Notes: generated from the sequence alone by a model not told the origin. A stretch of 64,000 nt of DNA from Chiloscyllium plagiosum (GCF_004010195.1 NC_057756.1:2978776-3042775); one strand, 5' to 3'; shown: positions 1,653 to 50,834, numbered from the stretch's first letter. Numbers and translations: made by a program.

Positions 1653-1688
1653 ATCTTAAAGAGCTGAAGGGTAGATTGGAAATGCTTG
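1653..1688 (+). CDS. 36-nt phase-1 micro-exon, (D)LKELKGRLEML
   Basis: Acceptor tttttttttccttctag, donor G|gtgagt, open in phase 1. Lies left of the scaffold gap. Confidence 0.75.
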
Positions 1689-1779
1689 GTGAGTAAAAAT
1701 AGCTTTTCCACATCTAGTCCATAAAATATGTTGTTGTTGCTTTAAATATATTTCTATAAACATATTTAATTAAAAGCTT

Positions 1780-2930
1780 TTTTTTACTTCTTTTACAAAA
1801 CATTTATACATAAAGAAAAAATAATCATCAGACCAGAAAAGAAGTATAAAAATCAAAACAAACATATTGAATAAACACTGGCTTAACTTACATTCAAGTT
1901 ACTTAAATTATATACTGTCAACTTACTTTTTTTCTGTATTACTCATCAAAACTCCACTGAGGCTCCCATCCCTGGGAGTAACCCTACAGTACCCATATTC
2001 GTTTTCTTCCAATCTCCTCGTCCTCCCGGAGCCCCACGGGTGCCCATAAAATATTCCATTGCAATAACACGGCCCTGACTCATCTTGCCGACAAGTCAGC
2101 TTCAATGTAATTTTAAAAGGGCCGCCACATCCTATAAAACTGTTTCGTGTTGTGTTGCAACAGATTTGTGAGGTAATCTTGGGGGAGAATCTCCATCACC
2201 AGCTTACGCCACACCGTAAGACTTGATGTCCACTTTAGTAAAATGTTCTTCCTAGCGCAATTGGCAAGGATATGACACAGTCTCTTCCTATGTTCTCCCA
2301 GAGAGGGCAAGTTTGGCAGCCCCAAAAGAAGAATTACAGGATCCATGTTCATTTCAGTCCACAGAATGCCTTTTAACTCCCTTACTATAGCACTCTAATA
2401 TCTATGGATATTCTAACATTACTAATAACAATCTGTGTGAGTGCCTATATGAATCTTACATTTCGAACATTCTAGGGACACGCCTCTCTTAAACTTAGCG
2501 AGCGTTTCTGGTGCCGTATGAGACGTATCTATGATCTTCAAGTGCATAAACTGTGCTACTGTTACATACTGAAATTGTCCTTGCATTCCCCTAGATATCT
2601 TCCCATATCTCCGGTGAAATGTCCTGTCCTAACTCGCGGTACCACGTCCTTCCATATCGCCCAGAGCACAGCCTCTCTGTAAATGATATAACGTACTAAG
2701 TGAAAGAGTACCCGTACACCAAAGCACTCTTTTCTCCACATCTGATTTATAACATTGGGCCAGGGGTGTGGTCTTCCTCTATATATAATCCCTTATCTGG
2801 AAGTATTGGAAAATGGCCTTAATGGATAACCCATATTTATGACTTAACTGACTGAATGACTTCAGGACTCTCCCTCGAACAAATCTCCCAAACATAGAAT
2901 TCCTTTCTCTTACCTTGATCCTAACATTCA
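1780..2930 (-). mobile_element. L1/Tx1-like LINE ORF2 3' fragment
   Basis: Minus-strand peptides ILANCARKNILLKW...QFYRMWRPF and FQYFQIRDYI are typical of the L1/Tx1 ORF2 C-terminus; an A-rich tail lies near 1780. Confidence 0.7.
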
Positions 2931-3225
2931 TAGCATAGTGGTTCTCACTGTTTCCATAGAACGCCAGGATCCTGGAGTCGATTTTTTGTGTGGAACGTGC
3001 CCATTCGCAAAGTGTCTGCAAGGGTTTCCTCCGGATACTCCGTATTCCTCCCACAATCCAAAGATGTGCAGATTCGGTGAATTGGCAATGCTATATTGCC
3101 CATCGTGATCAGGACTATATAGTGTCTGTGCATCATTAAGGGTAAGTGCACATAAAAATGTGTTGGGGAATGGGTCTGGGTGGGTGACGGCTCAGAGAGT
3201 TGGTGTGGACGTTTTGGGCCAAATG
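2930..3225 (+). mobile_element. HE1-type SINE, truncated by the gap
   Basis: gggtttcctccgg...ctcccacaatccaaagatgtgcag...ggtgaattggc core shared with the other HE1 copies. Confidence 0.8.
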
Positions 3226-3725
3226 NNNNNNNNNNNNNNNNNNNNNNNNNNNNNNNNNNNNNNNNNNNNNNNNNNNNNNNNNNNNNNNNNNNNNNNNNNN
3301 NNNNNNNNNNNNNNNNNNNNNNNNNNNNNNNNNNNNNNNNNNNNNNNNNNNNNNNNNNNNNNNNNNNNNNNNNNNNNNNNNNNNNNNNNNNNNNNNNNNN
3401 NNNNNNNNNNNNNNNNNNNNNNNNNNNNNNNNNNNNNNNNNNNNNNNNNNNNNNNNNNNNNNNNNNNNNNNNNNNNNNNNNNNNNNNNNNNNNNNNNNNN
3501 NNNNNNNNNNNNNNNNNNNNNNNNNNNNNNNNNNNNNNNNNNNNNNNNNNNNNNNNNNNNNNNNNNNNNNNNNNNNNNNNNNNNNNNNNNNNNNNNNNNN
3601 NNNNNNNNNNNNNNNNNNNNNNNNNNNNNNNNNNNNNNNNNNNNNNNNNNNNNNNNNNNNNNNNNNNNNNNNNNNNNNNNNNNNNNNNNNNNNNNNNNNN
3701 NNNNNNNNNNNNNNNNNNNNNNNNN
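3226..3725. other. Assembly gap (500 N)
   Basis: Run of N; the round size suggests a scaffolding gap of unknown true length. Confidence 0.98.
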
Positions 3726-5585
3726 TCTCCTAGAAGTCGTTTTGCGAATATGTCGATTGCTGAAATTGTTATGCTTGCACGTTAATTCAACGACAACGTC
3801 TCGTGGAGTGTATGTACCAGGCCGTGTACAAATATACTTGTTCGTGCCAAACTATCTTTTTGAGCATTCGAAAAGAAACCAATGTAAACATTCTGTCCAT
3901 TCTTGCAGTCCATTTTTTTCAAAAAACAAAATCTCTGAAATCAATATATTTGCATGACAATTCTGACATTTAATCATTTGCTTTTGGAAACAGAAGGATC
4001 ATTTCTCTATGCTGTGCTGATGTTGAACAGCACTGTGTCCGTGTTCTGCATTCATTAACTAAGAAGCACAATTTTGCTTCAAAATTTGTCATTGAACTTT
4101 GAGTACGCTTTCGCGAAGAAATGCTCTTCATTCTCATCAAGGACGTAAATGTCTAGTACTTTCCCATTCAATGTTCACTTGTGTATTTGTACCATAGAGT
4201 GATAGTTCCTCAATCGGGACTCATGCAACGTGGAAATGTACCGTTCAATCCAACCAGTCCACAGCAACCAAGTTTGTCAACTGAACCTCTCTGCGCTTCG
4301 GTCATATTGGACAAAATCTTTCCTGTTCATGTCCGTTAAATGCTGTAACTATGTATGCACTCGCCACTTTCTCTGACATTTCATCACAACAAAATATCCA
4401 GAAAGAAAAAGTCGTTTTCACAAACTTATCGTGAACAGCTTTTATTGGTGTATTTCATATTAGTTAGCACCGCTTCTGTACATACTATCCTCGGTGAAAA
4501 ATACAGTTCATATTTTTTTATAAAAAGCAGATCTTTGTATTTTCGTGCAACAATGTAACCATCTCTTATCCTTGTTTTCGAAATCACTGGCATCCACTAA
4601 TCTTTGTGGCTTCTGTACTAACCCTTATGTTTCTGCAACAATATTATGATGAATGCAATAAATTTGGAAGCCATGTATAATGTTTATAATTTGCATTCAT
4701 TAATCCAGTGATTGCAGGGGTAACGTTAATTGCACATCCCTAATTTTCATTGAGAATGTACCACAATGCTGAGTCCTGGATTTGCATTTCTATCAGTGGC
4801 TTCAAATCAAATGACAAAAATACAAAATTTCATTTTTCATGCATTTCCTGAGTTGTTTATTTCATGCACCAAATGTGATTACAGGAATGCATCGGCTTCA
4901 AAATATATCGAAAGGTCTTTTTTATTAATCTGTTTATGTTTCTCTTTATTCACTGATGAACAACGTGTCTGCACAAACCAAGCAAAATACGTGTTCAGAT
5001 TAAAAATTGGAATTGCTTGAAATCCTCAGTAGTTCTGGCAGCATTGGTGCAGAGAAACTCAAGTTCACATTTCCCGTCGAGTGAAACTTTTTCAGAACTC
5101 AAAACTTGCATTCGAATAGTTTCGATGTTTTCCCCAGTGCGAACGCAGATGGAAATAAATTTTGCAAGCATATTTGGGCAATACTGTTGGGGTGGTTTGG
5201 AACAAAACATCAAATGGCACGTGCCTGCATATGCACTGATTCGTTTGGAGATTCGAAGGTATTAGTAATTAAAGTTGAAATAGTTTCAATTCTCGGTTGA
5301 TAGATTTTCCTGCATTGCATAAAATTCTCTCTTTTTCCTTGTTGCTGAAACTATTCCTACTGCACAAATGTCCATCAGGGGAAATTCCTGCTGGACTTCA
5401 TTTATTATTATTTGAGATAGTACCAAGGAAGCGGCTCCACATTTTGAACATTACTCTGCTTTTTAATAACCTTATATTTTAGTATTCAGGAAGGTTGGCC
5501 ATGTGCCAATAATCAGCTCTTGCAAGTTGAAGGTTCTGAATTTACTTTTGGGGCAACAAATTTCGGAATTGTGTTCGTTAATTAG

Positions 5586-5603
5586 ACTTTGAATCTCTGT
5601 ATG
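5586..5603 (+). CDS. Candidate 18-nt phase-1 micro-exon, (D)FESLY
   Basis: Perfect donor G|gtaagt, modest acceptor gtgttcgttaattag. Confidence 0.4.
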
Positions 5604-6178: not shown

Positions 6179-6205
6179 ATAATGAAATACTATTGAAAGA
6201 TCATG
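6179..6205 (+). CDS. 27-nt phase-1 micro-exon, (D)NEILLKDH
   Basis: ggtttcctcaacag| ... G|gtaatg, open frame. Confidence 0.6.
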
Positions 6206-7350: not shown

Positions 7351-7377
7351 ATGAACAAATGGGAGAACTTCAAAAAG
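7351..7377 (+). CDS. 27-nt phase-1 micro-exon, (D)EQMGELQK
   Basis: tctatttaccttccag| ... AAG|gtaaca, open frame. Confidence 0.7.
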
Positions 7378-12690: not shown

Positions 12691-12784
12691 TGTTGCCATT
12701 CTCGTCAAAAGGAAGTAACTCAAAACTGACTAAATGCATTAACTATGTTGAAGTTTTTGTATCTTCTTTTTCCTTCCATTACAG

Positions 12785-12820
12785 AACTGAAAGAATGCAA
12801 AAGTCGTCTTCGAAAGAAAG
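12785..12820 (+). CDS. 36-nt phase-1 micro-exon, (E)LKECKSRLRKK
   Basis: Long pyrimidine tract tcttctttttccttccattacag, perfect donor AAG|gtaagt; aligns with the 1653 exon (xLKExKxRL). Confidence 0.8.
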
Positions 12821-15160: not shown

Positions 15161-15196
15161 CAAAATGCCTTTCATTCCCATTGAAACAATGGAAAG
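15161..15196 (+). CDS. Candidate 36-nt phase-1 micro-exon, (A)KCLSFPLKQWK
   Basis: gattttgccag| ... AAG|gtagga, open frame. Confidence 0.45.
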
Positions 15197-15611: not shown

Positions 15612-16833
15612 TGTTGTGGTTCTGTTCGCCGAGCTGGAATTTTTTGTTGCAAACGTTTCGTCCCCTGTCTAGGTGACACCCTCAGTGTTTGGGAGCCTCA
15701 TGTGCAGCGCTTCTGTGGTGTTTCCACCGGCATTTATAGTGGCCTGTCCCTGCCGATTCCAGTTGTCAGTTTCAGCTGTCCACTGTAGTGGCCGGTATAT
15801 TGGGTCCAGGTCTATGTGTTTGTTGATGGAGTTTGTGGATGAGTACCATGCTTCTAGGAATTCCCTGGCTGTTCTTTGTTTGGCTTGCCCTATAATGGTA
15901 GTTTTGTTCAAGTAGAATTCATGTTGCTTGTCGTCTGCGTGTGTGGCTACTAAGGTCGTGGCGTTTCGTGGCTAGTTGATGTTCATGGATGCGGATCGTT
16001 AGTTGTCTTCCAGTTTGTCCTACATAGTGTTTTGTGCAGTCCTTGCATGGGATTTTGTACACTACATTAGTTTTGCTCATGCTGGGTATCGGGTCCTTTG
16101 TTCTGATGAGTTGTTGTCTGAGGGTGGCTGTTGGTTTGTGTGCTGTTATAAGTCCTAGTGGTCGCAGTAGTCTGGCTGTCAGTTCTGAAAAACTCCTGAT
16201 GTATGGTAGTGTGGCTAGTCCTTTGGGTTGCGGCATGTCCTCGTTCTGTTGTCTTTCTCTTAGGCATCTGTTGATGAAATTGCGTGGGTATCCGTTTTTG
16301 GCGAATACCTTGTATAGGTGTTCCTCTTCCTCTTTTTGCAGTTCTGGTGTGCTGCAGTGTGTTGTGGCCCTTTTGAATAGTGTCTTGATGCAACTTCGTT
16401 TGTGTGTGTTGGGGTGGTTGCTCTCATAGTTCAGGATTTGGTCTGTGTGTGTGGCTTTCCTGCAGACCTTAGTGGTGAATTCTCCGTTCGGTGTTCTCTG
16501 TACCATCACGTCTAGGAATGGGAGTTGGTTATCCTTTTTTCTTTCTCTCGTGAATCGGATTCCTGTTAGTGTGACGTTGATGATCCGGTGTGTTTTCTTT
16601 ATTTCTGTATTTTTAATGATTACAAAGGTGTCATCCAAATATCTGACCCAGAGTTTGGGTTGAATTTGTGGTAAGACTGTTTGTTCTAACCTTTGCATTA
16701 CTGCTTCTGCTATGAGTCCAGAGATCTGAGAGCCCATGGGTGTTCCGTTGATTTGTTTGTATATCTGGTTGTTGAATGTGAAGTGTGTTGTGAGGCACAA
16801 GTCCAGTAGTTTAAGTATGCTGTCTTTGTTGAC
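15612..16833 (-). mobile_element. Penelope-like element, RT plus GIY-YIG endonuclease, 5' truncated
   Basis: ORF 15919-16800 has GTPMGS and WVRYLDDTF (RT) and NVVYKIPCKDCTKHYVGQTGRQLTIRIHEH (GIY-YIG). Confidence 0.95.
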
Positions 16834-16843
16834 AACGCAAAGT

Positions 16844-17843: not shown

Positions 17844-17870
17844 ATGACAGACTCTCTTTGAAGGAGGAAG
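17844..17870 (+). CDS. 27-nt phase-1 micro-exon, (D)DRLSLKEE
   Basis: atgttcaacag| ... AAG|gtactt; acceptor and peptide resemble the 6179 exon. Confidence 0.55.
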
Positions 17871-29303: not shown

Positions 29304-29339
29304 TAATACAAGACTTGAAGAAAAAGTTGGATGATAATG
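29304..29339 (+). CDS. 36-nt phase-1 micro-exon, (V)IQDLKKKLDDN
   Basis: ctttaatctttcgttttag| ... ATG|gtaaca; same hydrophobic register as the 1653 and 12785 exons. Confidence 0.75.
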
Positions 29340-32000: not shown

Positions 32001-32027
32001 CACAGACACAGAAAAGGAAGAAAAGGC
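32001..32027 (+). CDS. 27-nt phase-1 micro-exon, (A)QTQKRKKR
   Basis: ttttgcactatttgaaacag| ... C|gtacgt, open frame. Confidence 0.5.
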
Positions 32028-32166
32028 GTACGTACTTTGCAATAAATATCCGAGAACGGAACTTTTTCACATGCAAAAGAACATTCTGTTTAAATATATA
32101 AGATAAAGAATAGTACAGTAATCAGCAATTAACGACTTTAATCTTTGTTTTCAACGAACATTTCAG

Positions 32167-32193
32167 CTGATTCAGTGGAATGTCGAGAAGTTG
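32167..32193 (+). CDS. 27-nt phase-1 micro-exon, xDSVECREV
   Basis: tttgttttcaacgaacatttcag| ... G|gtaagt. An in-frame alternative acceptor 9 nt inside would give 18 nt. Confidence 0.65.
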
Positions 32194-34336: not shown

Positions 34337-34363
34337 AGCTTCAAGATCTTCTCCAACGTACTA
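34337..34363 (+). CDS. 27-nt phase-1 micro-exon, (E)LQDLLQRT
   Basis: tactcctttcgttcag| ... A|gtaagc, open frame. Confidence 0.7.
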
Positions 34364-34930: not shown

Positions 34931-34957
34931 TGGACACATTATTTGAGAAAGAGAAAG
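34931..34957 (+). CDS. 27-nt phase-1 micro-exon, xDTLFEKEK
   Basis: gtgttttcttttcgtcattcag| ... AAG|gttcgt, open frame. Confidence 0.65.
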
Positions 34958-36132
34958 GTTCGTGCTCCATAGAAATGTGCTGACATGGCAACGTTAAAAC
35001 CAGTGCAAATAATAAAACAAAAATAAAGAATGGCCAAGCTATAGTACGTTATTTCTCCTAATGTGTGAAATTCAATGCTGTATTGGATGCTGTTGCCATA
35101 CACACCCGCTGTACTTGTTTAAAGGCGATTGAATCCAGTCCTAAATATTAAAGTATCGCCATGCCCTACGATGATAAGTCAAGAGTTTAGTTTTGATGGT
35201 AGAGTCGAAAGCATCTGAGAACCATTTTGCAAATCTTGTTATGAACGAACGAAATCCACTGAATTCTGTTTGCATATGGAATATGTGTTTTTCCTTTGTT
35301 TCATAGATGAGGAAAACGAGGGCAACTTAATATTAATTTGTGAGATTTTGATAAATGTCAAACCCTCTGCACCTATAAGATATACAGAAGAGATATGAGT
35401 GCGCTCAAACATGAATGTCAAATATTATAGACTTTCTATATCATGTAGAAGGATTTGCTAAGATTTGTCATAAAATTTCCATTTATCGTATTATAATCTA
35501 CGATTTTCTTTCAGAGAAAGTTGTCGAATAATTTCTCTATGCCAAAAACATTTTTAAATATTATATGTTCAGGACGGTGCAGAAATAAATCTGTTAGCAA
35601 TTTTTTAAATATCTTAAATAGCATGCAACAATCTCAACTTCGGCATTCAAGTAAATCAAAACGTTTATTGCTGCGATCATCCTTTTTCCTTTTAATTATT
35701 CTGATCTTTTTTAGAAAGTCTTCCTGTAGTTGAATTTAGCTATGTTCAATGTTAATGGAGAACAAAGGCAATGCTTGTAGCTTTTCAATATATTTTATTT
35801 CTGGCCCACGACTGATAACTGTTGTTGATATACTAGCACGTTTTTCCAGAGACAGAATGCATTATAACGATCAATATGATTGGCATTGCTGTCCAGTTTA
35901 TTCACTGACATTGTTTTTGAAAAAAAAAACGGAGATCAGGGTTGCACCTGCAGCTTACTGTAGGTTACGGAAATTCCGCAGATGTTGTTGTTTTAGCATT
36001 AAATTCTACTGCAGATTCAGAAAAAAACAATGAAACTTCCAAATAATTCAAAACACAAATGCATCAACATTGACAGAACACAAAACACACCAGCCTAAGT
36101 GAGTATTATTTCTGATTTTTCATTATTATCAG

Positions 36133-36168
36133 TTCTGAGAATTGGTGAAGAATTTCCAAAGAATAATG
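36133..36168 (+). CDS. 36-nt phase-1 micro-exon, (V)LRIGEEFPKNN
   Basis: tctgatttttcattattatcag| ... ATG|gtaaga; the 3' end ataatg|gtaa is shared with the 29304 exon. Confidence 0.7.
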
Positions 36169-36834
36169 GTAAGAGCTACTATTCTCGAGCTTCTGTAATT
36201 TACGAGGAATATTCAATCTGCAGTGGAACATTCCTTGAAAATGTCGTACATAGACACAAATCTCTTTGTTCCCTCAATATGGAAGTTGATCTTTGCCTGT
36301 GTTTATTCATGACACTGACACTTGGAATCTTTCAAAATGTTTGACTCCAATGGCGAATCGTCGTTTGTGAGCATTCTTCATATATGTGATTTCGTACAGA
36401 TTTGCATTTCTAGTAGAAACATTTTGCCAGTTTATCTCATTTTCGTTGCTTCTCCTGTGTGAAAGTATTCCGGTTTTTGAATTCACCTCTGAATAGTTCT
36501 TGATCACTCATTTGATTCCAGAATATCATATCCCGCTAAATACTTTCTGCCTTGTTTATACAATGTTCGCTGCTAGATTACCCATTCACAATGCTTCTCG
36601 GTGATGCTTGGATATGTTGCTTGTAACTAATTAATAATCACTTTTCCTCGCCCACAAACCATCCCTCATTAAATATCCGCCTGAAAAGTCAACTCTCGTA
36701 TTCTGCTTATGCTGCTTGATTGCTGTACTTTTACCAGCTCCTTATTTTATTGGTTCTTGTCATCAAATGCGCTGCTCCCCCACATATAGCACAATTTACA
36801 CCTAATAGTCTCCCTTAGCAGTTGTTCATTGTCC

Positions 36835-39700
36835 TGCTGTGTCATACAGTCAGATTCATACAGTCTATCAGCACAGAGACACGCCCTTTGGACAAACTGT
36901 TTCATCCCGACCAAAGTGTCTGCATATGCTAACCCCAATCCCCTGCATTTGGCTCATATCCATCAAACATTTGCTATTCACCTATTTGTCTAAATGCGTT
37001 TTGAATATTATTCATGCATGCTTCTCAGTGATTTTCACTGACAGTTCATTCCAGATGCATAACACCTTCTCTGTTAAAACATTACCTGCCAGGTTCCCTT
37101 TTATTCTTTGCCCTCTAACGCGAAAATGATGCATTCTAGCCTTGCTCATGATCTTATACACGTCTGTACGATTTCCCCTCAGTGTCTGACATTATAACAA
37201 AATCTTGCACAAAATCTTCCAATAATCCAGATTCTTGAGTACTCGCATCATCCCTGCAAATTTCCTCTGCACTCTTTCCTGTTCGATAACGTACTTCCTA
37301 TTGTGACATAATCAAGACTGAACAAAATATTTCAAATATAGCCTTACCAATGTCCTGTACAACAGCAACATAACTTCCTACCTCCTATCCTCACTGCCGT
37401 GAGTGATGAAGACCAGTGTGTCATCTTCTTTACTGCCCTATCCACCTATGACTATAATTTTGGAGAACACTGCACCAAGAAATTAAGAACTCAAGATCCC
37501 TGTGTTCCACTACACTTCTTATGGTCGTGCGATTCTCCATGAAACTCTGATTTTGATTTGACTTTCCAAAATACAACGTTTATTCCTTTCTGAAATGCCA
37601 TTTGCCATTTCTCGGCCAGCATCCACAGATGTTCTGAGTTCTGCTGCAATTTCTGATAATCTTCCTCACTGTCCATGATAATAGCTATTTCAGTTCAGTC
37701 TGCAAACATAAGAATCATGCCTTGTACATTCTCATCAAATCATTGATGTAGAGAACAAACAGCAATTGGCCAGCACCAAACCTTGAGACACTCCACTAGT
37801 CACGGGCCTTCAGTCCGACAGGCATCATACCAACATATCCCTCGGCTTCATGCAATCAAGCCAATAGTGTATGTATTTTGCCAGTTCCCGCGGATTCCAT
37901 GAAATCTAACCTTCCAGAGCAGTTTACCATGTGAAATCATATCAAATGCCGTTTTGAAATCCTTATCGACTATATCTACTCATTTTCCCTCGTCAAGCTT
38001 TCTGGTAATTTCTTCAAAGAAATCTAACGCATGTGTGAAACGTGATCGCCCATGACAAAGCCGTACTGACTATTCCGAAACAAACTCTGTTTTTCCACAT
38101 GCATATACATCTTGTCTCTCAGAATTTTCTTTATTTACGTTCCCATCAAACATGTTTAGCTTATTGGTGAAAAATCTCCAGTTTTCTTTTTCTTTTGGTA
38201 CCCTTTTTCAGTAAGTGAACAACATTCGCTACCTTCCAGTCTTTCTGGAGCACAGCTGTGATTAACAATAATACAAAAAATATCAGCCTGGGCACAGCAA
38301 TTTCTTTGCTAAATTCTTGCAGTGTTCCTGGATATATCTGGTCCCGAAAAGAGATTTATCCCATTTCATGAATTGTGTTATATCCAAACATTCCACGAAT
38401 GTGACAGGAACTGTGCCCAAAATATGATGACCAACATCGTCAAGTTCCTATGTCTTCACATCTTTGTTCATGGTTAACACAAAGCAAAAACAATTTACTG
38501 AGGTATTTGCCCATCTCCTGCCCTTCTAGCCATACATGTCGACTTTAGTCCTTGAAGTGTCCTATTCTCTCTCCAGTTATTGGTATGCATTTAATGCACT
38601 TCAATAACATTTTTTGGATTGACCAAATCTCCTTAGCCAAGGCGATCTCACGTCCCCTTTTTGCTCTGCTGATTTCCTTCTTAAGTAAACTCTTTTATCA
38701 TCTACATAGCCTCCATGCATTCGCTTGATCCTCGCTGCGTCGATCTGAGCCATGCCTTCTTATGTTTCTCTGATCAAAAAATCAACATCTCTTGTCTTCC
38801 AATATTGCCTATTTCTGTGAAATTTGCCCTTCTCCCTTAAAGGAAAAAGAAAGAACTCTAGAGATCGTATTTTAAAGGCCTCCATCTTGACAGAGGTCCT
38901 TGTGCCTGCAAAGAAAATATTCCAATAAACTCCTGGAAACCGTTTCTAAATCTATCAATGTTCGACTTGCTCGAATATAAAACTTCAACTACACATTCAT
39001 TTGCCATATCCATCTATTCTTACCCTCACTAGCAGCTACACTAGAAGACATTTGGAGTTGATGACCGTCGACGTCCTGGATTTTAACTTTTCTTCTCGAT
39101 CTCTCGTCACTCCACAGGACATCATTGCTATGTTGACCTATATCCTTTCTGACAAAGTGCACACTGACCTCTAGCTTCGCAGCCTTCTGCTTGAGCACGA
39201 CCTGCAGCCACTCAGAGACATCCTGGATGAGGCAACACACCATCCTCGATTCACGTTTGCGCACACAGGATCTTCTGAGCATCCCTATAACTATTGAGTC
39301 TCGTCTCACTAACATTATGTTTAAGTTCACACTTTATGACTGCACTGCAAAGTCAGGTATAGTAACAAGGAACTTGGAACTGTTGCTTAACATTGAACAG
39401 TCATCATCCCAACAGTACCTAAAACGGTGTAATTTTTTCGAGGGAAATGATCACAGGTGATTCTTGCACTCTCTGCCTACTCCCTTTGCGTTTCCTTATG
39501 GTCTCTCAGCTGTTCTAAGCCTGCGCTTAAAGTGTGACCACCTTTGTAGATCCCTTATCTATGAAAGGCTCAGCACCTCAAATGACCCTAAAAGCATCCA
39601 GCCGTAACTCTAGCTCTCCACACAGTCTCCCAGGAGCTGAAGCTGGTACACTTCCCACAGTTGCATCATCAGACACTCTAATCGTTACCCACTTTTTGTC
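36835..39700 (-). mobile_element. Degenerate, internally deleted CR1 LINE (ORF1 esterase and ORF2 remnants)
   Basis: DSEEDYQKLQQ...AEKWQMAF (ORF2) and MLVRRDSIVIGM...SRMVCCL (SGNH-like ORF1). Confidence 0.85.
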
Positions 39701-41384
39701 TTCCCAACGTTTTTTTCCCTGTCTTTGGACTCTATCTCCATCAATTAGCCTTCCCCAATCCTTCCACTATATCTTCGTGATAAAAAGTCATAACTCACCT
39801 AATCACCATTCGAAGATACGTCACTCCCCTCAAAATGTTAACTCTGATTCCTCTGAGCAGATACTACCAGATCCGACGAGATTTCCTATCGAGTTCTCTT
39901 TGCACTTCTTCTCTATCACGGGTGTCAAATTAAACTGAATTGAGTAATTATCTCGAGATATTTAGTATCATTCCCTAAATGTTACAGGCGATTGAATATC
40001 GCTTACCCCTTGCATTCCAACTGTTGCATAAACCTAGCTATGCATTCCACTTACATTGTTCACTGGCAGTTGTGGCTTATACTTTTTGAACAAAATTGTA
40101 CATCAAAGCAAACTTCGACTGTTCATGATTAATATACGAGTATGTAGGGTTCAGGGTGGACACGGGTGAGTGCTAAAAGGAGGAATCATGCTGAATCCCT
40201 GTCAGCGATGTAGAACATTCAACCATAAATTCGAATCTTTTGTGTTGTTTTTCAATTCGACCTCAGGTGATTCACAATCGTCATTGTTTCTCATTTCTTG
40301 ATAACTGTGCCTTCTGGATCTGTGTTGCTTCTGTCAATACTTTCAGCCATTTATCTGTACATACCAGTTTCGATAACTGAACCATTTGATCGAAATTAAA
40401 CGGTAATTCACATGAAGATCTAATCAGTCTCCTGTGGAAGTTAGGTTTAATGCCAATTCAATAAGAATAACGAATGATGTTGAGACGCTATTCAGTATTC
40501 AAATAACAATTCATAGATGTTTCGCAGTCTTGTACCGAATTGGAAAAAAAAAGTCCAAATTTCGGAAACTAGATTAAGATTCTATCAGCAGTTTAAATAA
40601 ATTTCCTGATCTTACCAGTCCCCGATGATCTTTGACTGACAATGTCAATTACTTTAAATTTTTCGAGTGAAGCATTCAACTCAACAAAGCTAGATCTCTT
40701 CGCTTTGCTGAGCCTAAACATTCTCCACGGCCAGTAAAAATAAATTGTCTTTTTTTGTAATGATTTGGTATAATTAATTGAAAGCACTGTAGCGAGTTTA
40801 TGGTCTTAGACATGCAGTTTTCAGTTTAACGTGTATTGGCAATGCCAGGATATGAACGACGGGATCAGCAAATAATTATTTTCCATAATTAATATGATTT
40901 CTTTAGTAATGATCACAGAAAGTTGTTTAGCATGATATCATGATGGCTCCAAGAACAACATGTGCAGAAATCCGCCCACCACAACCACTACACTGGGAAA
41001 TAAGTTAAACAAAGGAAAATTATGAATGGAGTAAAAACTGGGTAACAGCACGTCGCAGAATATACTTAGTTTAAAGATGTTTATCTTGATTTTCCAATGT
41101 AACAAGTGTTCGCAGCATGTCAATGGCATCAATCACGTTTTAGATAGCCTCCAGAGCCTGCACTCTGCAAAAGAGGAGGAAGAAGAATGAAAAGACACTT
41201 TTTATTCTTCCTCAATTAACTTCAGGCATAGATGATTTGATCAATAACAGGACGGGTGGCACTTGTTTCCAATCTGCCCTTCTGAAGACCATGTTCATGT
41301 TTGATTTATTTTTACAGGTAGATGACTTCATTATAATCTTGCATCTAAGCCCTTTAACAAACGAATGGTTTTGGACTGGATCTA

Positions 41385-41475
41385 TGATTCTTGATGAAGG
41401 GCTTTTGGCCGTAATGTCGATTCTCCTGTTCCTCAGATGTTGCCTGACCTGCTGTGATTTTTCAGCACCACACTA
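41385..41475 (+). repeat. Single arm of the Penelope-derived palindromic element
   Basis: ttgatgaagggcttttggccgtaatgtcgattctcctg...cagcaccacact. Confidence 0.75.
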
Positions 41476-41852
41476 ATCTTGTCTATGAACACAAAGCTGC
41501 GTCCCAATTCGCAGCATTTGTTGTCAAGCACAGCAGATTTGTCAAACAATATTATATGCAATGTAATTTAATTGCCACTGACTTAACAATCTCGTGGTTT
41601 TTGAAATACTGCAGCACATCTCCGTTACAACAACAAAACAAAGTATCATGACATCTTAGAAAGAGATCCCAAACTAAATGAAAACTGTGTGATAATCCAA
41701 TCCTCTCAGAATAAACCAATGAAAAGCGATGCATGACAAATGAAACTATCACATCAAAGATGACCATCCATAACAGACTTGCCGTGGTATGTTAGTTGTA
41801 TATTCCATTTCTTAGCGGTGACCTTTTTGACAAACAAACACACCTGCACTAG

Positions 41853-41873
41853 CTAATAAGTTTAGCACAGCAG
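41853..41873 (+). CDS. Weak candidate 21-nt phase-1 micro-exon, (A)NKFSTA
   Basis: cacctgcactag| ... CAG|gtaaaa; poor pyrimidine tract. Confidence 0.25.
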
Positions 41874-42632
41874 GTAAAAACACATAATAGAAATAAGCAC
41901 AACATCAGACAGACGATCAAACTGTAATACTGAAGACACAAGTCTTCTTTATAAACGGTAGAAGAATTAATATGGATTAAAATAGTGCTCCGCACCATGC
42001 TGACGATCATCAGAAGACTGATGTAAAGTGACTGAACTAATTTAGTAAGATAATATTTATATAAATCAAGCTAGTCACTCATTCTGAAATTGCTTTCTGC
42101 CACTTCATATCAATCACCATCTCGTTAAAATTTCGTTCAAAGCACAACAAAAGAAAATTGAAATAAAATATATAATTGGAGACACACTCTGAGCCACAAA
42201 GCTATATTTTACAATGTTATCAAAAAAGAGTCCTAACAAATCAGAAGGGAGTATTGACGTGTGGGCATAAAACGAAACAAAAAATGTCATCATACTTAAG
42301 AAATGAAAGGGAGAGTCTTGTGTCAGTTGTTACAGGGCAATAATTCCTGTGAATTGAAACGCCTGTAGTCCTGCTTGAGCTTTCTGAGTTCTGAAGCAAA
42401 TGAAATGACTGTTTAATTACTTTGCCTCTGAACCCTCACATCATAATGTAGGGGTTCAGTAGTTATGATTAATCGGAACTCAAAACCTAAAAAATGCAGA
42501 AGCCATCCCTGTTTATTTACAGGGTACTTTGTCAATGCTGTCTCTTTATGAAAAGGTTATTTTTGTCCTGACTTTCATTTTTTAAATTTTGTTGAATAGA
42601 GTTTCGAAAATAGAGATATAGCTACTGAAGAC

Positions 42633-43347
42633 GGGTGCAGGACCATTCGGCGCAGCTATTTTGGCTCGAGCGATTCAGAGCGGCCAGTTTGGCATAACAT
42701 GTTTTGGCACAGATCCATTTAAGCACATAAAGGTTTTGGCGCAGCTCATATTTATTCATTTTCAGGCTTAGCTAAAAGCATTAATGAAAGCAATAAAAAG
42801 AAAAAAAATGTTTATCTTCTTTAGTAAAAATATGGAAAAGGAAATAAAAATAAATGAAATAACGTAAATATGAAAAATCTAAAATATGACGTTTATTCAA
42901 AATTATGGGCTATTTCAGCATCTGACACTTTTATCTTTGAAATGACGGTGTCTCTTTCTACCTTAGATGCTGAAGCTGCATGCAAATGTTCATTAACTTG
43001 TTTCACTAGGTCACCATTTATAAAGTGAGCGTTGCAAATGCCCTTCCTCTCACATCTCCAAAACGTTATCAGCAGCATATCTATCAAATACGTATATATA
43101 GCTGTCGTATGAGCACTTTTCCTTTCCATACTTTGACAACAAAATTGTTGATGGCATTTTAATGAGTTATATTTTATTTTAGTAATTACTACAAACTACT
43201 GAATAACTACAAAACAGCTCTTCGCCAAAATGGGTCTGCACCAAAACAGTTCTGCACTTAAATGGCTCTGCGCCAAAATGGGCTATGCCAAACCGGCCAC
43301 GAAACATCATTCACGCCAAAATGGCTGCGCTAAATGGTCCAATTTCG
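42633..43347 (-). mobile_element. Non-autonomous Mutator/MULE DNA transposon with FLYWCH remnant
   Basis: 9-bp TSD actgaagac (42624-42632 and 43348-43356), imperfect TIRs of about 110 bp built from ttttggcgcag subrepeats, and internal ORF YTY...TFWRCERKGICNAH...VNEHLH (FLYWCH pattern). Confidence 0.85.
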
Positions 43348-44867
43348 ACTGAAGACAGCATAAGTGAGCAATTTAGGAGACCTTTACGATTTCCATTGTA
43401 CGTTGGAACAATTGATTAATTTTGAGTGAAAGTGGCCAGCTCTCACAAACCATTTTTCTCTTTTATTAGCTATAACCGTCAACAACTATTTGGGTTATCA
43501 GAAGTATTGGTTGCTTCAGTGAGTGCTTGCTTTCTGCTACTTCCTTCGGCATTTCTCTCATCGTTTATTTCACCCTGGATAGCAGAATTGTATGTCAGAA
43601 TTTGTATCTGAATTTGTCTTTGGCTAACGAATACTGCGGAGATGTAACTATTTTTTGTAGTAATTAATTAATAGTAGGTATTTCATCTATTATTCAGTTA
43701 AGATTTCCAGTAGTTATGTTAGTCTAAATGCTACTTCCCTTTGTGTGCATGTTCATTATACTGTAAAACTAAATTGTGTTTTGCTTCACATTGAGCATTT
43801 TGGCCAGTGGCATCACATCTGGAATAGGCTGTTTGCATCAAACTTTCAAATAAGGAAATGTGAGGGTGTGGGCTACAGTCTTGAAACTATTTTTATGGTG
43901 TTCTGTCTTGTCCACAACATGCTGAAGAAATTGTCCGTAGAAAAGAAAACAGAATTTGATGGAGAAGTTCAACACTTCCAGCAGCCTGTGAGGGGAAAGC
44001 ACTGTTATGTCTACTATTAGCTGGAAAGAAGTTGTACATGTGCTTCTACCAGTGTTCGGGTTCTGGTTCTGTTAATTATCGAGCAGAAGAGAGATAGAGA
44101 CTGGCAGAGTTTGGCAAGGAAATGGTTGATGAATAATGTTGTTCAGTTCCTCTGTTCGACAACACATTTTGCATGGCACATAAAGAAGAGTTGAATCTGT
44201 ATCCACTGTGCAATAACTTTATTAATTTAATTAAAACAGTTGTGCAATTCAGATCCTCTGTTTAGGAAAAGATTGACGAGAGGCATGCAACACATAGAAG
44301 GCTAAATTCCCAGTAACCAGTGGTTTGTTTTTCAATGATGTTCTTTGAACAGTTTACATAAACAAAGTTTGATATCGAAGAATAGAAGCTTACGCTGGCC
44401 AGTAGAATTATCCCGGATCGTGGAGATAACTCCACACTTCCAAGCATTGGGTCCACAATTCCAGAAAAGTTTGTTCACCAGAGGTTTCCATGATGGTGCG
44501 CCATAATCATTCATTTGTGTTTCTTTTTCCCTTATATTCACAAACATTGGTACCTTATCTTCATTGGATCTTAAGTCATATGACGACCCATGGCTTTCTA
44601 CGAGAGGCTCACTCCAAGAACACCTTTAGGCTTCTCACTTTACTGCTCGACCAAATCTTCATTTTGCCCTTGCTTCATCCTCAGAGGTCAATCTGCTCAA
44701 AGAGGCTGAACACAATGTTTCGGATCCGCATAACATCTGTTCACAATTATTGCCGTTATTTGTAAAGAGCCCCAGGTCAACAATAGACATCTAGGTAAGG
44801 GGGAAAATAACCTGGCATTTGGGTAATGTGTATTTGAACAAATCCTTGCTATATTTGAAGCAAAGCA

Positions 44868-45835
44868 TAGAATATAGAACATAGAGAAGTACAGTGCAGA
44901 ACAGGCCATTTGTCCCACGATGTTGTGCATAGGTTTAATCCTAATGTAAACTATAGTTACCTACGCACCCCTCAACTCACTGCTATCCATGTATATGCCT
45001 AGCAGTCTCTTAAATGTCCCCAATGACTCTGATTTCACCACCACAGCTGGCAACACATTCCAGACATTCACAACTCTCTGCGTAAAGAACCTACCTCTGA
45101 TGCCTCCACTATATTTCCCCCTAATATCTTAAAACTATGAGTTCTTGTACCAGTCAATCCTGCCCAGAGGAACAGTCTCTGGCTATTGAATCTATCTATT
45201 CCACTCATTATTTTGTACACCTCTATCAGGTCTCCTCTCTTTCTCCTTCTCTCCAGAGAGAAAAGCCCGAGCTTATTCAACCTTTGTTCTTACGGCAAGC
45301 CCTCCCATCCAGGCAGCATCCTGGTAAGCCTTATTTGCACCCTGTCCAAAGCTTCTGTATCTTTTCTATAGCAGGAAAGATCTGGACACAATATTCGAAG
45401 TGTGTTCTCACCAGGGACATGCAGAGCTGCAGCAAAACCTCGCGGCTCTTAAACTCGATTCCTCTGTTAATGAAAGCCAAATGCGACTCATGTGGAGAGG
45501 GAGGAGGCAAATATCCTCGCTAGAGGCTTAGAAAACTCTTTTTTTCGCTTCCCAGAGCGGCCTCGGATAAATCTGGTGTGGCCCTGGGGACTTATCATTC
45601 TTAATGATTTCCAAAATGTCCAGCACATCAACTTCATCAATCTTGATCTGGTCAAACCTGTATCCCAGCTCCACTAAGTTTTCATTTACAACAAGATCCC
45701 TCTCCTTGGTGAAAACTGAAGCAAAACAAAACTCATTTCGGGCTTCCCCTGTTGGCTCAGATTCCACACACAAGTTCCCTCCACTATCCCTGATCGGCCC
45801 TACCTTCTCCCTGATCATTTTCTTATTTCTCACGT
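44868..45835 (-). mobile_element. CR1 LINE 3' fragment with internal deletion
   Basis: LGLFSLERRRKRGDLIEVYKIM and KNDKSPGPHQIYPR abut near 45480, so the RT core is missing; tail (catagaa)n. Confidence 0.9.
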
Positions 45836-47830
45836 ATGTTGTGAGAAGCTTTGGTTTAGGGGATGTTTACTGGCATGAAAGGAGATGTTCAAATTCCAAA
45901 ATTCATGAAATCGATATTTATTGCTGAAGTTTATGCAATACCCAAACTAAAGACATGGTGTTGTCCTTTCCAGTTTCCCACCTCCGCCAGTGAGCCTCGC
46001 TGGATGACCACCCCAGACCCAAACAGTTAGAGTGGTCTTTGAACACAATATTTATTTTTCAATGTGGCAAAAACCTGGGATCTCGAAGTGATTTCTGTAT
46101 TCAGTTTGTTTAAAATGCAATTAGTTTGATCACTTTCTAGAGCATCGACGATGTGTTTGTGAATATTCGATAAGCATTCCCATGTGTATTATTTTCTGTG
46201 CAATTTCGTTCCTGTTTTTCCGAGAGGTGAAAATGTAATTCTGTCATTCAAATTACTCATGTCGGCTAATTTCACTAACATTGCTTCTCTTTCTTTAAAA
46301 CCTGATTGGGCACTGACGCTCCGTCCTCTGTCCTTTGTTATGTGAAATATTTTCATGCAAATAATGCATTGAATCAGCTCTTCTGGCGTGTTTCGGATGC
46401 AATTAGATTATTTTATCAATAAATAGGTAAGAAAAATGTAAATGAAAAAACTTCTAAATCTGTGGTAACTTCAGCGCCTTGAACAACCGAGCAAACGGTC
46501 CTTACAATCTCATTTCATGCCAGTTGCATTTTCCCAGCGTTTGAAGTTAATCTTAGGCTGCAACTGGGAAGAAACTTTATTTGTCATGCTACAGAAACTT
46601 GAGAACAGTATGTAATGCAGTTCTCAATCCTTCTTCTATCGAACATATTAAATAGTAGTCAAATCATCAAAAGTGCCAACTTACAGTTGCTCCACGTTTT
46701 ATGAAAGCTGCATCCTTGTAATAATAGACAAACACATTTTCACTTGTGATCATTTTGCTCTGTTTATCTGTCATCTAAGTTAGCTGGAAATGCTACGTGA
46801 ATGTAGTTAAAAAATGACAATGAGAAGGTGACCTCAGTGCCCATTTAGCCAGAGAGTATTGTATTTCATTCTCAGAACATGATGGAATATCTTATTTTGA
46901 CTGCCAGCCTCTCTCTAGTTCGCTATATAAAGTGAGTTTCTTAAGTGAGTGAGGTTTGGACTGCTCGTGTTATAAAGACGTCCATTATTTTCTACATTTC
47001 CTTCCCTATATTTTCTTAATTTAAATAAAATGCTTTATTTAGGACAGAAAAAATAACTCTGCTTTCATGTAACCAAGCCTAGTAGACTTGTAGGTCACGT
47101 CGTCTATAATGATATTTTTTATAATAACTGGCATTGTATGCTACTGCTTCTTCATCACGTCTCAATCTGCACAAAGGACTTTCAAATTTCCAACTCTATT
47201 TATTAATCATGGACGATATCAAGTGTTCGCAAAACATTATTTTGACTTTTTTTTCTGATTGATCGCAAAGGAAGACAATAAATAAATAAATAAGCATCGA
47301 GCGACTGCAGACAGATCATGCCGACGGATGCCACAAATTCTGATCTCGTTTTAGAATATTCTACGCACTCTTCAAGATGAATGATTTGCTCTAACGGTGG
47401 TAGCACAGCGTGCGGGTACAACTTACAAATAATGATGTTTTCCAAGGATTTCTATCAAGATTTTGACAGCTGTGATATACTTTGCCAAATGTTGACAACA
47501 AATGACTGGGCAGTTTTCCCAAATGTTTTTATTTTTCTCAACTCTCTCTTTACGAGATATGCCAAACATAGGTTGTCAAATTTTCCAAGGACATCTATTT
47601 TTTGTGCCTCTGTTTACTCATGTCGACTATTGTGCGCACACTTTACTGAATTGCAAGGTTTTTTGTCCTACTTATAGTCTAATGACTGGCGTACATTGAT
47701 CATAGGAATTATATCGAAAAACGTAAGATGGTTAGAAACGTCTCAAATCATTTTATTTAAGTTGGAGTCAACAGATAATTAATCAAATGAAACAGTGTTC
47801 AGACTTTCCAATTACCTTTTTTTATCTCAG

Positions 47831-47851
47831 ATAATGTATTGCTATATAATG
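47831..47851 (+). CDS. Candidate 21-nt phase-1 micro-exon, (D)NVLLYN
   Basis: Strong acceptor ttacctttttttatctcag, weak donor G|gtggtt; resembles the 6179 exon. Confidence 0.4.
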
Positions 47852-47932
47852 GTGGTTTTCATAATGTTACAATCGAGTGAACAGAGAGGCAATGAAATAA
47901 ACTTATATTTATTCACTTAATATTGATCATAG

Positions 47933-47968
47933 ATAAGACATCATTGGAAAATAAAATAGAAGGCCATG
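47933..47968 (+). CDS. 36-nt phase-1 micro-exon, (D)KTSLENKIEGH
   Basis: tattcacttaatattgatcatag| ... ATG|gtgagt, open frame. Confidence 0.7.
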
Positions 47969-48134
47969 GTGAGTCTTTCATTCAATTAATCTGAGTTGGA
48001 AAAGTGTATGGAAGATGCGGAATTTGTACAAAGGATTAAACCCTAAATATTCTGGCACGTCTAAATGGCTCCTCATTGTTGCAACATCTGAATTGAAATG
48101 CAAAGTTGAAAAAAAAATGTAAGCACAACAAATA

Positions 48135-48137
<3 letters not shown>

Positions 48138-48195
<58 letters not shown>

Positions 48196-48213
48196 ATATA
48201 TATACACACACAC
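48138..48213. repeat. (TA)n(CA)n microsatellite
   Basis: Directly visible. Confidence 0.97.
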
Positions 48214-49704
48214 GTTATCTGACAGATGTAGCCGATGTTGGATTAGCCAACAGTTAGTGTCTATTCCAAAATGCTTCGAGAACTTAGTGGTAAAATGCTT
48301 TACCAGACAGTATGCAAAAGCTGTTAGGGAAAAAGCTGTGCTATTTTTATTCAACAGCATTAGGTAGAATGTACTGTACTTCGAGAGGAAATGCACGTCT
48401 CCCTGTTCCCATGTGGCTATTGGCTTATTCCTCTCCCAATTAGATCTTGGCTTGGAATCAACTGTATAAGATGTCTTGTGTTTCTGTGGTTAACTTCGAA
48501 TGCGTACATTTTGCTACCACTGTATGAGAATGATTAAACGAGGCAATGTCCATGTCTCAAAATGGATACCAACAGAACTGCCATAATTCTCAATTGTGAG
48601 TCATGTACAGGCATTTAGGAACCGTGAGGTGAACATATCTTCGCACAATTTCCAGTTGCTAACGAGATCGTCTAACTACCATACATATAGCACGACTTTC
48701 TTCAATGTCAGGTCAATATATCCTGCCGAGTATTGGCGGGAAATAATACAGTGCTGATTGTTTGATTGAAGAAAAAACAAAAATGTCCGTTTTGTTCTTT
48801 TTGATATGCAATGCCTTTCACTGGTGACTTTACTGAACCTTTCTGTCAGTCAATATTGACTGGTGCCCTGATAATATTGGATCTGACCATGTCCGTTTTA
48901 AACATCTCAAAGTCAGGAAATTATCAAAGCATGAACTTGCAGGCATGTATATTAATCAAGAATCAGGAGACTCGTAGGTGTCAGTAAACGTCTGAGGAAT
49001 TGTTTTCAATGTAACTAAATGCTTGATATAAAGCAGTGCTCGGCGTTATTGCCATCAGTGGGAACAAAAGTATTTCCACAGTGACGACATTTCATCATAT
49101 GTTTTGATAAGTGTTTGACAAACCTGTATTTCTATTACTCCTTGGAGTGATGGAGAGTTCTCCCTTTTGCATACACTTCTTTAAAATAAATCTGGTTAAG
49201 GCTGCAAAGGAAAAAAAATGCTTGTCGCTATTTCAGAAAGCAGCCTGAAAACATGGAACGGGTTATGTTTGTAGAATACACACACTGCTTGTACTCTGGC
49301 CAGCACCTGTCATCGTTTTGTGAATATTATAGTTTGGGAGATGCTGGCCAGATTGACTGTGCCTTGGTCTTTCTACAAATGACATAACTGGTCAAATTGC
49401 TGCAGTTCTGTGCAGATGTCAGTGTTTTGAATGCAATGGAACTGTTTTCCAACTGGAATTTCAAATTTTGAAGCACAATATCTCAGCATTATTCCGAAAA
49501 AAATTCGCCCACCCACGATACAGTGGAACTCCTTTTATGCAGGGTGACAACAACAGTGGGGATTCCAATAGGAACTGCAGATGAAATGAAAGCCCGAAAT
49601 ACTCAAAGTTGTCTTGGAAGTGATAAACAATGAAGGAATGAGATAAAGAAAAATGATATTTTCTGTAAATCCACGAGTACACTATTAAGGTATTTGTGTC
49701 AGAC

Positions 49705-49995
49705 TAGATTCCCTACAGTGTAGAAACAGGCCCGTCGGCTCAACAAGTCCACACAAACCCTGTGGAGTGCAACCCATTCCCCTATATATAAGCCTGACAA
49801 ATGCGTCTAACACTATGGACAATTTTGCATAACCAATTCACCTATACTACACATTTTCATGATTGCAGGAGGAAACCCACACAGAGACAGCGAGAATGTA
49901 CAATCTCAATACAAGCAGTCGCCCGAGTCAGGAAACAAACCCGGGTCCCTGCCGCTGTGTGGGAGCACTGCTAACCACCGAACCACAATGTGCAC
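49705..49995 (-). mobile_element. HE1-type SINE
   Basis: Collinear with 13495-13798. Confidence 0.88.
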
Positions 49996-50242
49996 CTTCA
50001 GGCTACTTTATATTCAGTGTGATAGATTTTGTTTAGCTTCACGTCGTTGTGCATGGCAAAAATAAACAGGTACGTAAATAGATAGATAGTAGAGAGACAG
50101 TCAGATACAGAAGAAATCACAAACATTATTATCAAGACAGCTTGTAAATGAACATTAGTACCTACGTTTGATTTGTCGATTGTTTTAAAATGCTGATGCA
50201 ATATATATAATCTGCTAACTGTAGTACCTGTTCTCGTTACAG

Positions 50243-50278
50243 ATAACAGAGAATTAAAACAGAACAGAAAGCAAAAAG
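50243..50278 (+). CDS. 36-nt phase-1 micro-exon, (D)NRELKQNRKQK
   Basis: cctgttctcgttacag| ... AAG|gttcga, open frame. Confidence 0.65.
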
Positions 50279-50813
50279 GTTCGAAATGGAAATTGGATAA
50301 ATTAAATGTAGTCAGTAAAGAAATGTATGGTATAATTTGATTATCAAAATGAATGTTATCAAAAATCCGTGAAAATGCTGTAGAAACTCAACAGTTGTAG
50401 CAGCATTTGTGGGAGAAATAATATGGGAATTTCGATTCTTGTTGACTATTCACCAAAAGTGTTTCAGAACGCACCCAGGGTGCTGGCAAAGAGAACCCAG
50501 ACTCGAATTATTAACTTAGCTTAACCTCCACAGATGCTGCCAGAGCCTCTGAAATTCTGAAAGCGAATTTGCTTTCGTTTTTTAGTTTTTCTTTCTTTAT
50601 GTACTCTTGTGTGATAGTCCTTTTCCATTCGCACAAGGTGTTTGCAAAGGAGAATTGACTTTGGTGTTCAGAAACGGAATATTCGGATCAAAATAAACAA
50701 CTAAATCTGAAACATATGTAAGTATTGATACGCATTAACAAGAATATGCGAGCAACTTAGATTTTCAGGCTTATAGGATCAATTGTTATTCTCTTTGTTA
50801 TGCTTTCATTCAG

Positions 50814-50834
50814 ATGATTCAGCTTTATTCACTG
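50814..50834 (+). CDS. Weak candidate 21-nt phase-1 micro-exon, (D)DSALFT
   Basis: Strong acceptor ctctttgttatgctttcattcag, weak donor G|gtctaa. Confidence 0.25.

Follow-up and report, generated by a model that had tools for sequence, protein, structure and literature searches.

Can a vertebrate gene run for hundreds of kilobases with coding sequence in exons of only 27 and 36 nt? The question is raised by a stretch of 64,000 nucleotides from Chiloscyllium plagiosum (NC_057756.1:2978776-3042775), hereafter the window, which corresponds to the + strand of G000:C47:2,978,776-3,042,775 in a genome assembly of 3.56 Gb and 101,977 contigs. An initial annotation of this DNA reported, between transposons, repeated pyrimidine tracts ending in AG and followed by a GT donor exactly 27 or 36 nt further on, and took the window for the interior of a micro-exon gene on the + strand. 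That proposal is supported by an excess of pairs specific to length and strand, by frame specificity, by conservation confined to the exons, and by the clustering of related exons in two genomic regions. Our analysis suggests that the window is very likely an interior piece of a very large + strand protein-coding gene, part of a coiled-coil gene family. The annotation further envisaged one gene, or tandem paralogues, with an expanded array; the array stands, at a far larger size than foreseen, reaching at least 496 kb and accompanied by sister arrays.

Length, strand and frame of the candidate exons

To place the window in context, we read 354 kb, comprising the window, 100 kb on each side and a further 50 kb downstream, together with one 20-kb sample far upstream (-200 to -180 kb) and another far downstream (+300 to +320 kb); the contiguous part amounts to 314 kb. 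All positions are counted from the start of the window, with minus signs upstream of it and plus signs beyond its end. Candidate exons were selected with a strict splice filter, which accepts a YAG acceptor preceded, at -20 to -4, by no fewer than 11 pyrimidines in 17 positions, together with a donor that matches R-A-G-T at +3 to +6 in three or more of the four bases. The background for each length is the mean and maximum over the other 119 pair lengths. Pairs were also ranked by a composite splice score devised for the present analysis. Phase 1 means that one base is brought over from the preceding exon.

The first explanation to be weighed is chance, since an AT-rich window of 64 kb holds many AG..GT pairs from which good-looking ones may have been selected. 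The GC content of the window is 35-44%, and the window alone is compatible with such selection: the strict filter retains three + strand pairs of 27 nt and three of 36 nt against a mean of 2.06 and a maximum of 7, which is no excess, and simple motif counts are alike on the two strands. Over 354 kb, in contrast, the 27-nt class on the + strand rises to 33 pairs and the 36-nt class to 19, where the other lengths average 9.59 pairs and none exceeds 18 (Poisson P = 2.7e-9 and 4.7e-3). Restricted to pairs with a terminal G, the counts are 17 and 10, where the other lengths average 1.86 (P = 1.8e-11 and 2.5e-5). The - strand of the same DNA is not enriched (7 and 4 pairs, mean 8.24). The enrichment that the initial annotation had put forward as its own check is thus absent from the window taken by itself and present over 354 kb, where the + strand stands out both from the - strand and from other lengths. 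On the + strand the lengths 18, 21, 24, 42 and 45 nt are not enriched (13, 8, 7, 10 and 7 pairs); these include the sizes of the weaker 18-, 21-, 24- and 42-nt candidates of the annotation.

The composite score sharpens the asymmetry between the strands. Among pairs open in phase 1, 50 on the + strand and 5 on the - strand reach a score of at least 21 within the 354 kb; at a score of at least 23 the counts are 15 and 0. From this excess of high-scoring pairs on the + strand over the - strand we estimate that the 354 kb contain about 45-60 real exons, or about one per 6-8 kb. Moreover, the excess is specific to one reading frame. In the 314 contiguous kb, 80 of the 107 strong + strand pairs of 27 or 36 nt are open in phase 1, as opposed to 52 and 57 in the other frames, and a terminal G is found in 51 of the 107, compared with 92 of 523 pairs of neighbouring lengths and 8 of 80 on the - strand. 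Chance selection does not predict an excess restricted to 27 and 36 nt, the + strand, phase 1 and a terminal G, nor the mostly synonymous changes in duplicated exon pairs and the confinement of related exons to two genomic regions described below. We give it practically no credence, and for the array as a whole it is already refuted.

Individual exons, their constraint and their peptides

All 14 AG...GT pairs listed in the initial annotation are present, each with a pyrimidine-rich tract and YAG followed by a GT exactly 27 or 36 nt on. All 14 read through phase 1 without a stop, and 12 end in G, the exceptions being 34337 (A) and 32001 (C). They are of unequal strength: we grade nine as strong, three as plausible (6179, 17844 and 50243) and two as doubtful (15161 and 32001). 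A composite score of at least 21 is reached by nine pairs, at 1653, 7351, 12785, 29304, 32167, 34337, 34931, 36133 and 47933. These, like the remainder of the 14, lie on the + strand. The 36-nt phase-1 micro-exon DLKELKGRLEML at 1653..1688 belongs to the highest class, with a splice score of 27 where no - strand pair reaches 23; it is preceded by ttccttctag and followed by gtgagt. The same score of 27 is attained by ELKECKSRLRKK at 12785..12820, a 36-nt phase-1 micro-exon of the E-L-x-[DEA]-C class, which is single copy genome-wide at up to three mismatches; a scan for retrocopies with the exact exon returned the exon itself only. The remaining 36-nt phase-1 micro-exons of this grade are VIQDLKKKLDDN at 29304..29339 (score 21, in DNA marked as single copy by read depth in DNA run X1), VLRIGEEFPKNN at 36133..36168 (score 22, in single-copy DNA) and DKTSLENKIEGH at 47933..47968 (score 22, donor gtgagt). 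Those of 27 nt, likewise in phase 1, are DEQMGELQK at 7351..7377 (score 21, purine content 0.74, terminal G), ADSVECREV at 32167..32193 (score 22, donor gtaagt), ELQDLLQRT at 34337..34363 (score 22, with a terminal A, hence ATG as the following codon) and (V/M)DTLFEKEK at 34931..34957 (score 23).

The plausible candidates comprise two 27-nt exons with background scores, DNEILLKDH at 6179..6205 (score 18; terminal G, Asp first, helical peptide) and DDRLSLKEE at 17844..17870 (score 17; the peptide fits the 9-residue class), and one 36-nt exon, DNRELKQNRKQK at 50243..50278 (score 17), which has a weak donor, gttcga, and a peptide that suits its class. The two doubtful cases are probably chance pairs. 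The 36-nt pair AKCLSFPLKQWK at 15161..15196 scores 20 and encodes a peptide that is neither helical nor charged (purine content 0.53), and the 27-nt pair AQTQKRKKR at 32001..32027 scores 18, ends in C and is followed by the next exon only 139 nt downstream.

The initial annotation had also aligned several of the encoded peptides with one another. This likeness holds for some exons only, and the best case is a pair copied beyond the window. Exons 34337 (ELQDLLQRT) and 34931 (VDTLFEKEK) recur in the same order 30 kb downstream, at +64017 (ELQDLLQKT) and +65411 (VKTLFEKET). Each is identical to its copy at 21 of 27 positions; in the phase-1 frame, 8 of the 12 base changes affect third codon positions, and of the 8 codons that differ, 5 encode the same residue in both copies (3 of 4 for 34337 and +64017). 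The 100-nt flanks of these exons are 23-34% identical, which is the random level (23-30% for 34337 and +64017, 24-34% for 34931 and +65411), and blastn detects no intron similarity between the two loci. Because the exons match, with mostly third-position or synonymous changes, while their flanks and introns are unrelated, the two pairs carry what in sequence terms is the signature of old duplicated exons retained by protein-level selection. An additional copy of the 34337-type exon lies at C47:3,999,754 and is identical to the exon at +64017 in 26 of 27 positions. An ungapped BLOSUM scan of the exon peptides yielded the one duplicated exon pair and no others. By the depth of run X1 over window positions 28500-48400, the exons there stand in single-copy DNA; on this ground and that of the unrelated flanks, we reject the view that the exons are parts of mobile elements.

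These comparisons also bear on the idea that the arrays are decayed relics, remnants of once-functional micro-exon genes that are now neither transcribed nor spliced. Such decay would agree with the lack of RNA support in the data obtained, with the failure to find gene ends and with the heavy invasion of the introns by repeats. It is at odds with the roughly 50 exons that retain both splice sites and an open phase-1 frame although the flanks of the duplicated pairs have fallen to random identity, and the preponderance of synonymous changes between the copies speaks for selection acting once they had arisen. We therefore consider a relic improbable.

The peptides encoded by the + strand exons have the character of a charged amphipathic helix, whereas - strand pairs of equal score encode random peptides. 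Examples are DLKELKGRLEML, ELKECKSRLRKK, EIRRLKNLLNDA, EIRKLRSTIEKE, DLNETKKALREA, ELQDLLQRT, ELEETLEKL and EKTQIEKDH, and Asp or Glu stands first in 27 of the 44 best exons. In the joined peptide of these 44 exons, hydrophobic periodicity at 3.5-3.8 residues amounts to 0.309, compared with 0.204 +/- 0.04 in residue shuffles, and 0.9% of 2,000 shuffles reach the observed value (P about 0.009). The exons are symmetric, in phase 1 at both ends, and the usual terminal G makes the split codon mostly Asp, Glu, Val or Ala. Each exon would contribute 9 or 12 residues of amphipathic alpha-helix, and the product may be a long rod of coiled-coil type with some 700 residues or more. With one phase common to all exons, any subset could be skipped without breaking the frame, and splicing could vary the length or content of the rod.

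Extent of the array and its relatives

Exons of the same kind are found from -86,752 to +209,563 in the contiguous stretch. The upstream sample adds + strand exons at -195,047 (EIQFWQKAVQDL), -191,362, -188,371 (ELKDCKLKKEDP) and -184,478 (ELDACQKKLREI), and the downstream sample adds two more at +301,061 and +301,343 (VIRKLIELHEIA), also on the + strand. The array thus occupies at least 496 kb, from -195,047 to +301,378 (C47 about 2.784-3.280 Mb), and reaches past everything read. In all parts read the coding sequence consists of 27- and 36-nt exons only, and the introns are kilobase-sized and filled with repeats. A search of the 314 contiguous kb for a longer phase-1 exon with good splice sites and a coiled-coil-like peptide found none.

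An extent of this order could also be reached if, instead of one gene of 0.5 Mb, there were several paralogues in tandem, each about 30-100 kb long and with a first and a last exon of its own that went unseen. Exon classes do recur at intervals of about 28-30 kb, as from 34337 to +64017 and in exons of the EIR class at +116878, +145244 and +209563, and across megabases the exons plainly fall into several units, of which that at C47 1.33-1.92 Mb runs on the opposite strand. Within the array itself the evidence points the other way. The 314 contiguous kb lack the longer coiled-coil-like exon with good splice sites just mentioned, no CpG island occurs except in a repeat, and a single phase is kept throughout, as expected within one reading frame. 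Moreover, open reading frames (ORFs) on the + strand of the flanks, 83 from -100 to -66 kb and 72 from -60 to -57 kb and +156 to +214 kb, were compared with Pfam, and the 155 gave only RVT_1 and one weak DUF1965 match below the cut-off, with no immunoglobulin (Ig), transmembrane or B30.2/SPRY exon among them. Tandem paralogy of this kind is rather unlikely in our view, and one large gene remains the preferred reading for the array around the window.

The CpG-rich stretch at -60,000 to -57,800 resembles an island, with a GC content of up to 0.56 and an observed/expected CpG ratio of up to 1.1. What lies here is a dispersed repeat, about 1.9 kb long, for which a first look across the genome gives 18,800 candidates (84-90% identity); its + strand ORFs, of up to 235 amino acids, have no Pfam match.

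Generic patterns of splice sites plus length are unsuited to genome-wide scans, for which 250-5,500 random matches are expected. We instead searched the whole genome for family members with degenerate motifs for single exon classes, splice sites included. The EIR-class motif has 10 matches, against 8 and 7 for its reversed controls; five of the 10 lie on the + strand of C47 at 0.513, 3.096, 3.124, 3.188 and 4.148 Mb. The E-L-x-[DEA]-C class gives 75 matches, of which seven are on C47, all on the + strand (0.763, 0.850, 2.790, 2.794, 2.992, 4.357 and 4.383 Mb), and one look-alike is on C37. A broader 36-nt motif, E-[ILM]-x-x-L-[KRNS]-x-x-h, is matched 70 times genome-wide and 48 times by its reversed control. 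C37 holds 16 of the 70, all on the - strand at 20.77-22.30 Mb, and C47 holds 17, of which six are on the + strand at 0.52-0.92 Mb, five on the - strand at 1.33-1.92 Mb and six on the + strand at 3.10-4.39 Mb. The remaining 37 are scattered, consistent with the 48 control matches. In the clustered matches, conservation extends to residues that the motif does not specify; positions 11-12 are often Asp-Ala or Asp-Leu. A version of the motif with Asp fixed at residue 11 has 13 matches, all within the C47 and C37 regions, and its controls have none, although this constraint was picked after the result of the broader motif and shows how clean the signal is instead of providing an independent test. 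The 27-nt class motif has 14 matches, four of them on the + strand of C47, among which is the copy at 3,999,754, and one on the - strand of C37. The order of matches at C47 4.00-4.23 Mb is colinear with that at 3.04-3.12 Mb.

By their motif matches, predicted exons related to those of the window array are shown in at least four further blocks, making at least five arrays altogether. The window array (C47 2.78-3.30 Mb, +) is accompanied on C47 by sister arrays at 513,326-916,888 (+; 0.51-0.92 Mb), 1,325,782-1,919,882 (-; 1.33-1.92 Mb) and 3,960,571-4,393,364 (+; 3.96-4.39 Mb), and on C37 by one at 20,080,247-22,303,008 (-; 20.1-22.3 Mb), each of these four delimited by motif matches only. The opposite-strand block on C47 must be a separate gene; the further blocks in general may represent sister genes or sister segments. 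The array probably grew by repeated duplication of multi-exon blocks, after which introns would have diverged fully and taken in transposons, with the exons held by constraint at the protein level.

Two observations from the same scans may be added. On C37, two identical 36-nt exons lie 12.8 kb apart, at 21,738,773 and 21,751,580. A pair of motifs aimed at intron-less copies matched a transposon family and a satellite instead and was discarded; the satellite, a chance match in the motif scan, consists of units of about 14 nt (GAAATACCAGTGCT-like) at C5:82,430,927-82,434,271 (-).

Transcripts, known systems and repeats

Several results weigh against a large micro-exon gene and belong beside the evidence above. 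Five of the 14 listed pairs (6179, 15161, 17844, 32001 and 50243) score 17-20, which is background, and the - strand is nearly as rich in such scores. The heptad register of the joined peptide is no better than in permuted exon order, as 31-41% of permutations reach the observed value; since permuted order keeps the periodicity, the helical character resides within the exons, and consecutive splicing of the listed exons is not demonstrated by it. The stretches scanned yielded neither a first nor a last exon of the gene, and no promoter, stop codon or domain-coding exon; the only CpG-rich stretch in them is the repeat at -60,000 to -57,800, and no promoter-like CpG island occurs. Among catalogued sequencing runs, those listed as containing this DNA are all DNA runs. 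The reads placed on window 28500-48400 come from one contig set of uncertain type ('RNA?'), two single-cell RNA runs and the DNA run X1. The RNA runs contain no GT..AG joint there, and their coverage outside repeats is almost nil: X6 has 0 reads, X5 has 19 reads at repeats, 18 of them partial, and X7 has 313 short contigs, nearly all on repeats. Pieces of 27 nt may, for their part, be unplaceable by read mapping.

Homology searches likewise identified no homologue, with very weak queries in which a 12-residue exon was padded with intron read-through. With a read-through ORF of 45 residues, which includes the 12-residue exon at -71867, three word-sharing candidates were obtained, none with E <= 10. 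A profile built from 16 exon peptides and 20 intron-derived padding residues was compared with 1.84 billion representatives; one match (E = 9e-4) was rejected, as it falls on the padding and not on an exon. Rfam has no match in the window. In the titles and abstracts of the open-access literature searched, we found no description of arrays of 27/36-nt coiled-coil exons.

The initial annotation had compared the array with the cytoplasmic tails of butyrophilins and chicken BG genes. Tail exons of BG genes measure 21 nt (7 residues, sometimes 8), and intron 1 is 113-354 nt long (PMC4046983). The resemblance to these tails lies in tiny symmetric exons, codons split at exon borders, short pieces presumed to form coiled coils, and exon duplication (PMC4046983). 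The array could be a hugely expanded tail of a BG- or butyrophilin-like receptor gene of the Ig V, transmembrane and coiled-coil type, and its split codons and helical peptides, with a periodicity of 3.5-3.8 residues above residue shuffles, are indeed alike. The exon size is not: the 21-nt class numbers 8 pairs and the 24-nt class 7 on the + strand, against the mean of 9.59, and the exons in excess are of 27 and 36 nt. The array runs on for 195 kb upstream of the window and over at least 496 kb in total, its introns measure kilobases where BG intron 1 has hundreds of nucleotides, and the scanned flanks, beyond which the array continues, contain no Ig V or transmembrane exon, including the 83 + strand ORFs at -100 to -66 kb. 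With 21 nt not enriched, and neither Ig, transmembrane nor B30.2 domains among the 155 + strand ORFs, the suggested kinship is not shown, and a receptor tail is a highly improbable explanation.

The large coiled-coil gene that we favor has other parallels in architecture. The micro-exon genes (MEGs) of Schistosoma encode small secreted proteins with a signal-peptide exon, 'appear to be restricted to platyhelminths' and have exons of mixed sizes from 3 to 81 bp (PMC4350168). They share with the present array coding mostly in very small symmetrical exons whose skipping keeps the frame (PMC4350168; 10.1101/2023.06.21.545858); in the shark array only 27 and 36 nt are enriched, and the 314 kb are devoid of longer coiled-coil-like exons. 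The comparison concerns architecture alone, and there are differences: two sharply preferred sizes, a helical, rod-like predicted product, and an extent measured in hundreds of kilobases to megabases.

Titin PEVK and triadin, too, contain long series of small exons in one phase that encode a repetitive charged segment. In triadin the micro-exons are set apart by introns of about 10 kb, and the protein is very Lys-rich and Leu-poor; titin PEVK exons measure about 75-84 nt and are Pro-rich. The peptides of the present array differ in being rich in Leu, Glu, Lys and Asp, with heptad-like hydrophobic spacing.

Non-fibrillar collagen exons often start with a split Gly codon, that is, in phase 1 with a terminal G, as here. 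COL7A1 has 118 exons of 27-201 bp, 107 of them in frame (PMC6831832). As in collagen genes, both preferred lengths are divisible by 9, many of the exons keep the frame, and the product would be a repetitive rod (PMC6831832). Among other multiples of 9, 18 and 45 nt are not enriched (13 and 7 pairs), and the peptides depart from collagen: there is no Gly-X-Y or Gly periodicity, the split codon is GA(N), GT(N) or GC(N) and not GG(N), and the periodicity is 3.5-3.8 residues and not 3. A bolder possibility, which we put forward only tentatively, is that the at least five arrays, covering about 4 Mb, form a family of the largest micro-exon genes yet seen. Their symmetric 27/36-nt exons, several hundred in number, would be transcribed and joined, perhaps in varying combinations, to give coiled-coil rods that differ in length. 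The 9-nt quantum may hint at a collagen-type scaffold in which Gly-X-Y has been replaced.

If the exons are spliced as predicted, a vertebrate would make extended helical proteins out of hundreds of 9- and 12-residue exons dispersed over megabases; for BG tails, MEGs, collagens and titin PEVK, nothing of this scale and regularity is described. Genes of this kind would almost entirely escape ORF tracks, as well as many gene finders and aligners, and would thus test the completeness of vertebrate annotation. They would also offer a natural system for studying frame-safe exon skipping and the definition by the spliceosome of 27-nt exons within introns of 5-15 kb.

The window contains further features outside the exons. 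A 500-N assembly gap occupies 3226-3725, and the long six-frame 'ORFs' around it are artefacts of the N run. The single-copy background of run X1 is interrupted by high-copy repeats at 29828-30491, 36468-38459, 42444-43107 and 44436-46427, where depth rises from about 10-25 to between hundreds and 42,000. An element of about 86 nt at 41387-41472 has eight more copies within 264 kb, at 74-84% identity; DNA depth in its bin is 13,381, compared with about 10-20 in single-copy bins, and no Rfam family reaches its gathering score there. Run X1 differs from the assembly by about 110 listed single-base differences in the 19.9 kb of window 28500-48400, and by small indels (11 nt missing at 32324 and 12 nt inserted at 42522). 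The predicted exons contain 0 of the 40 X1 differences shown, where only about one would be expected. A (TA)34 microsatellite lies at 48138-48204, and reads appear to be cut there. The transposons mentioned in the initial annotation correspond to fragments of long interspersed nuclear elements at 15919-16842 (-), 52698-53249 (+) and 54112-54594 (+), with RVT_1 on both strands and Exo_endo_phos on the + strand.

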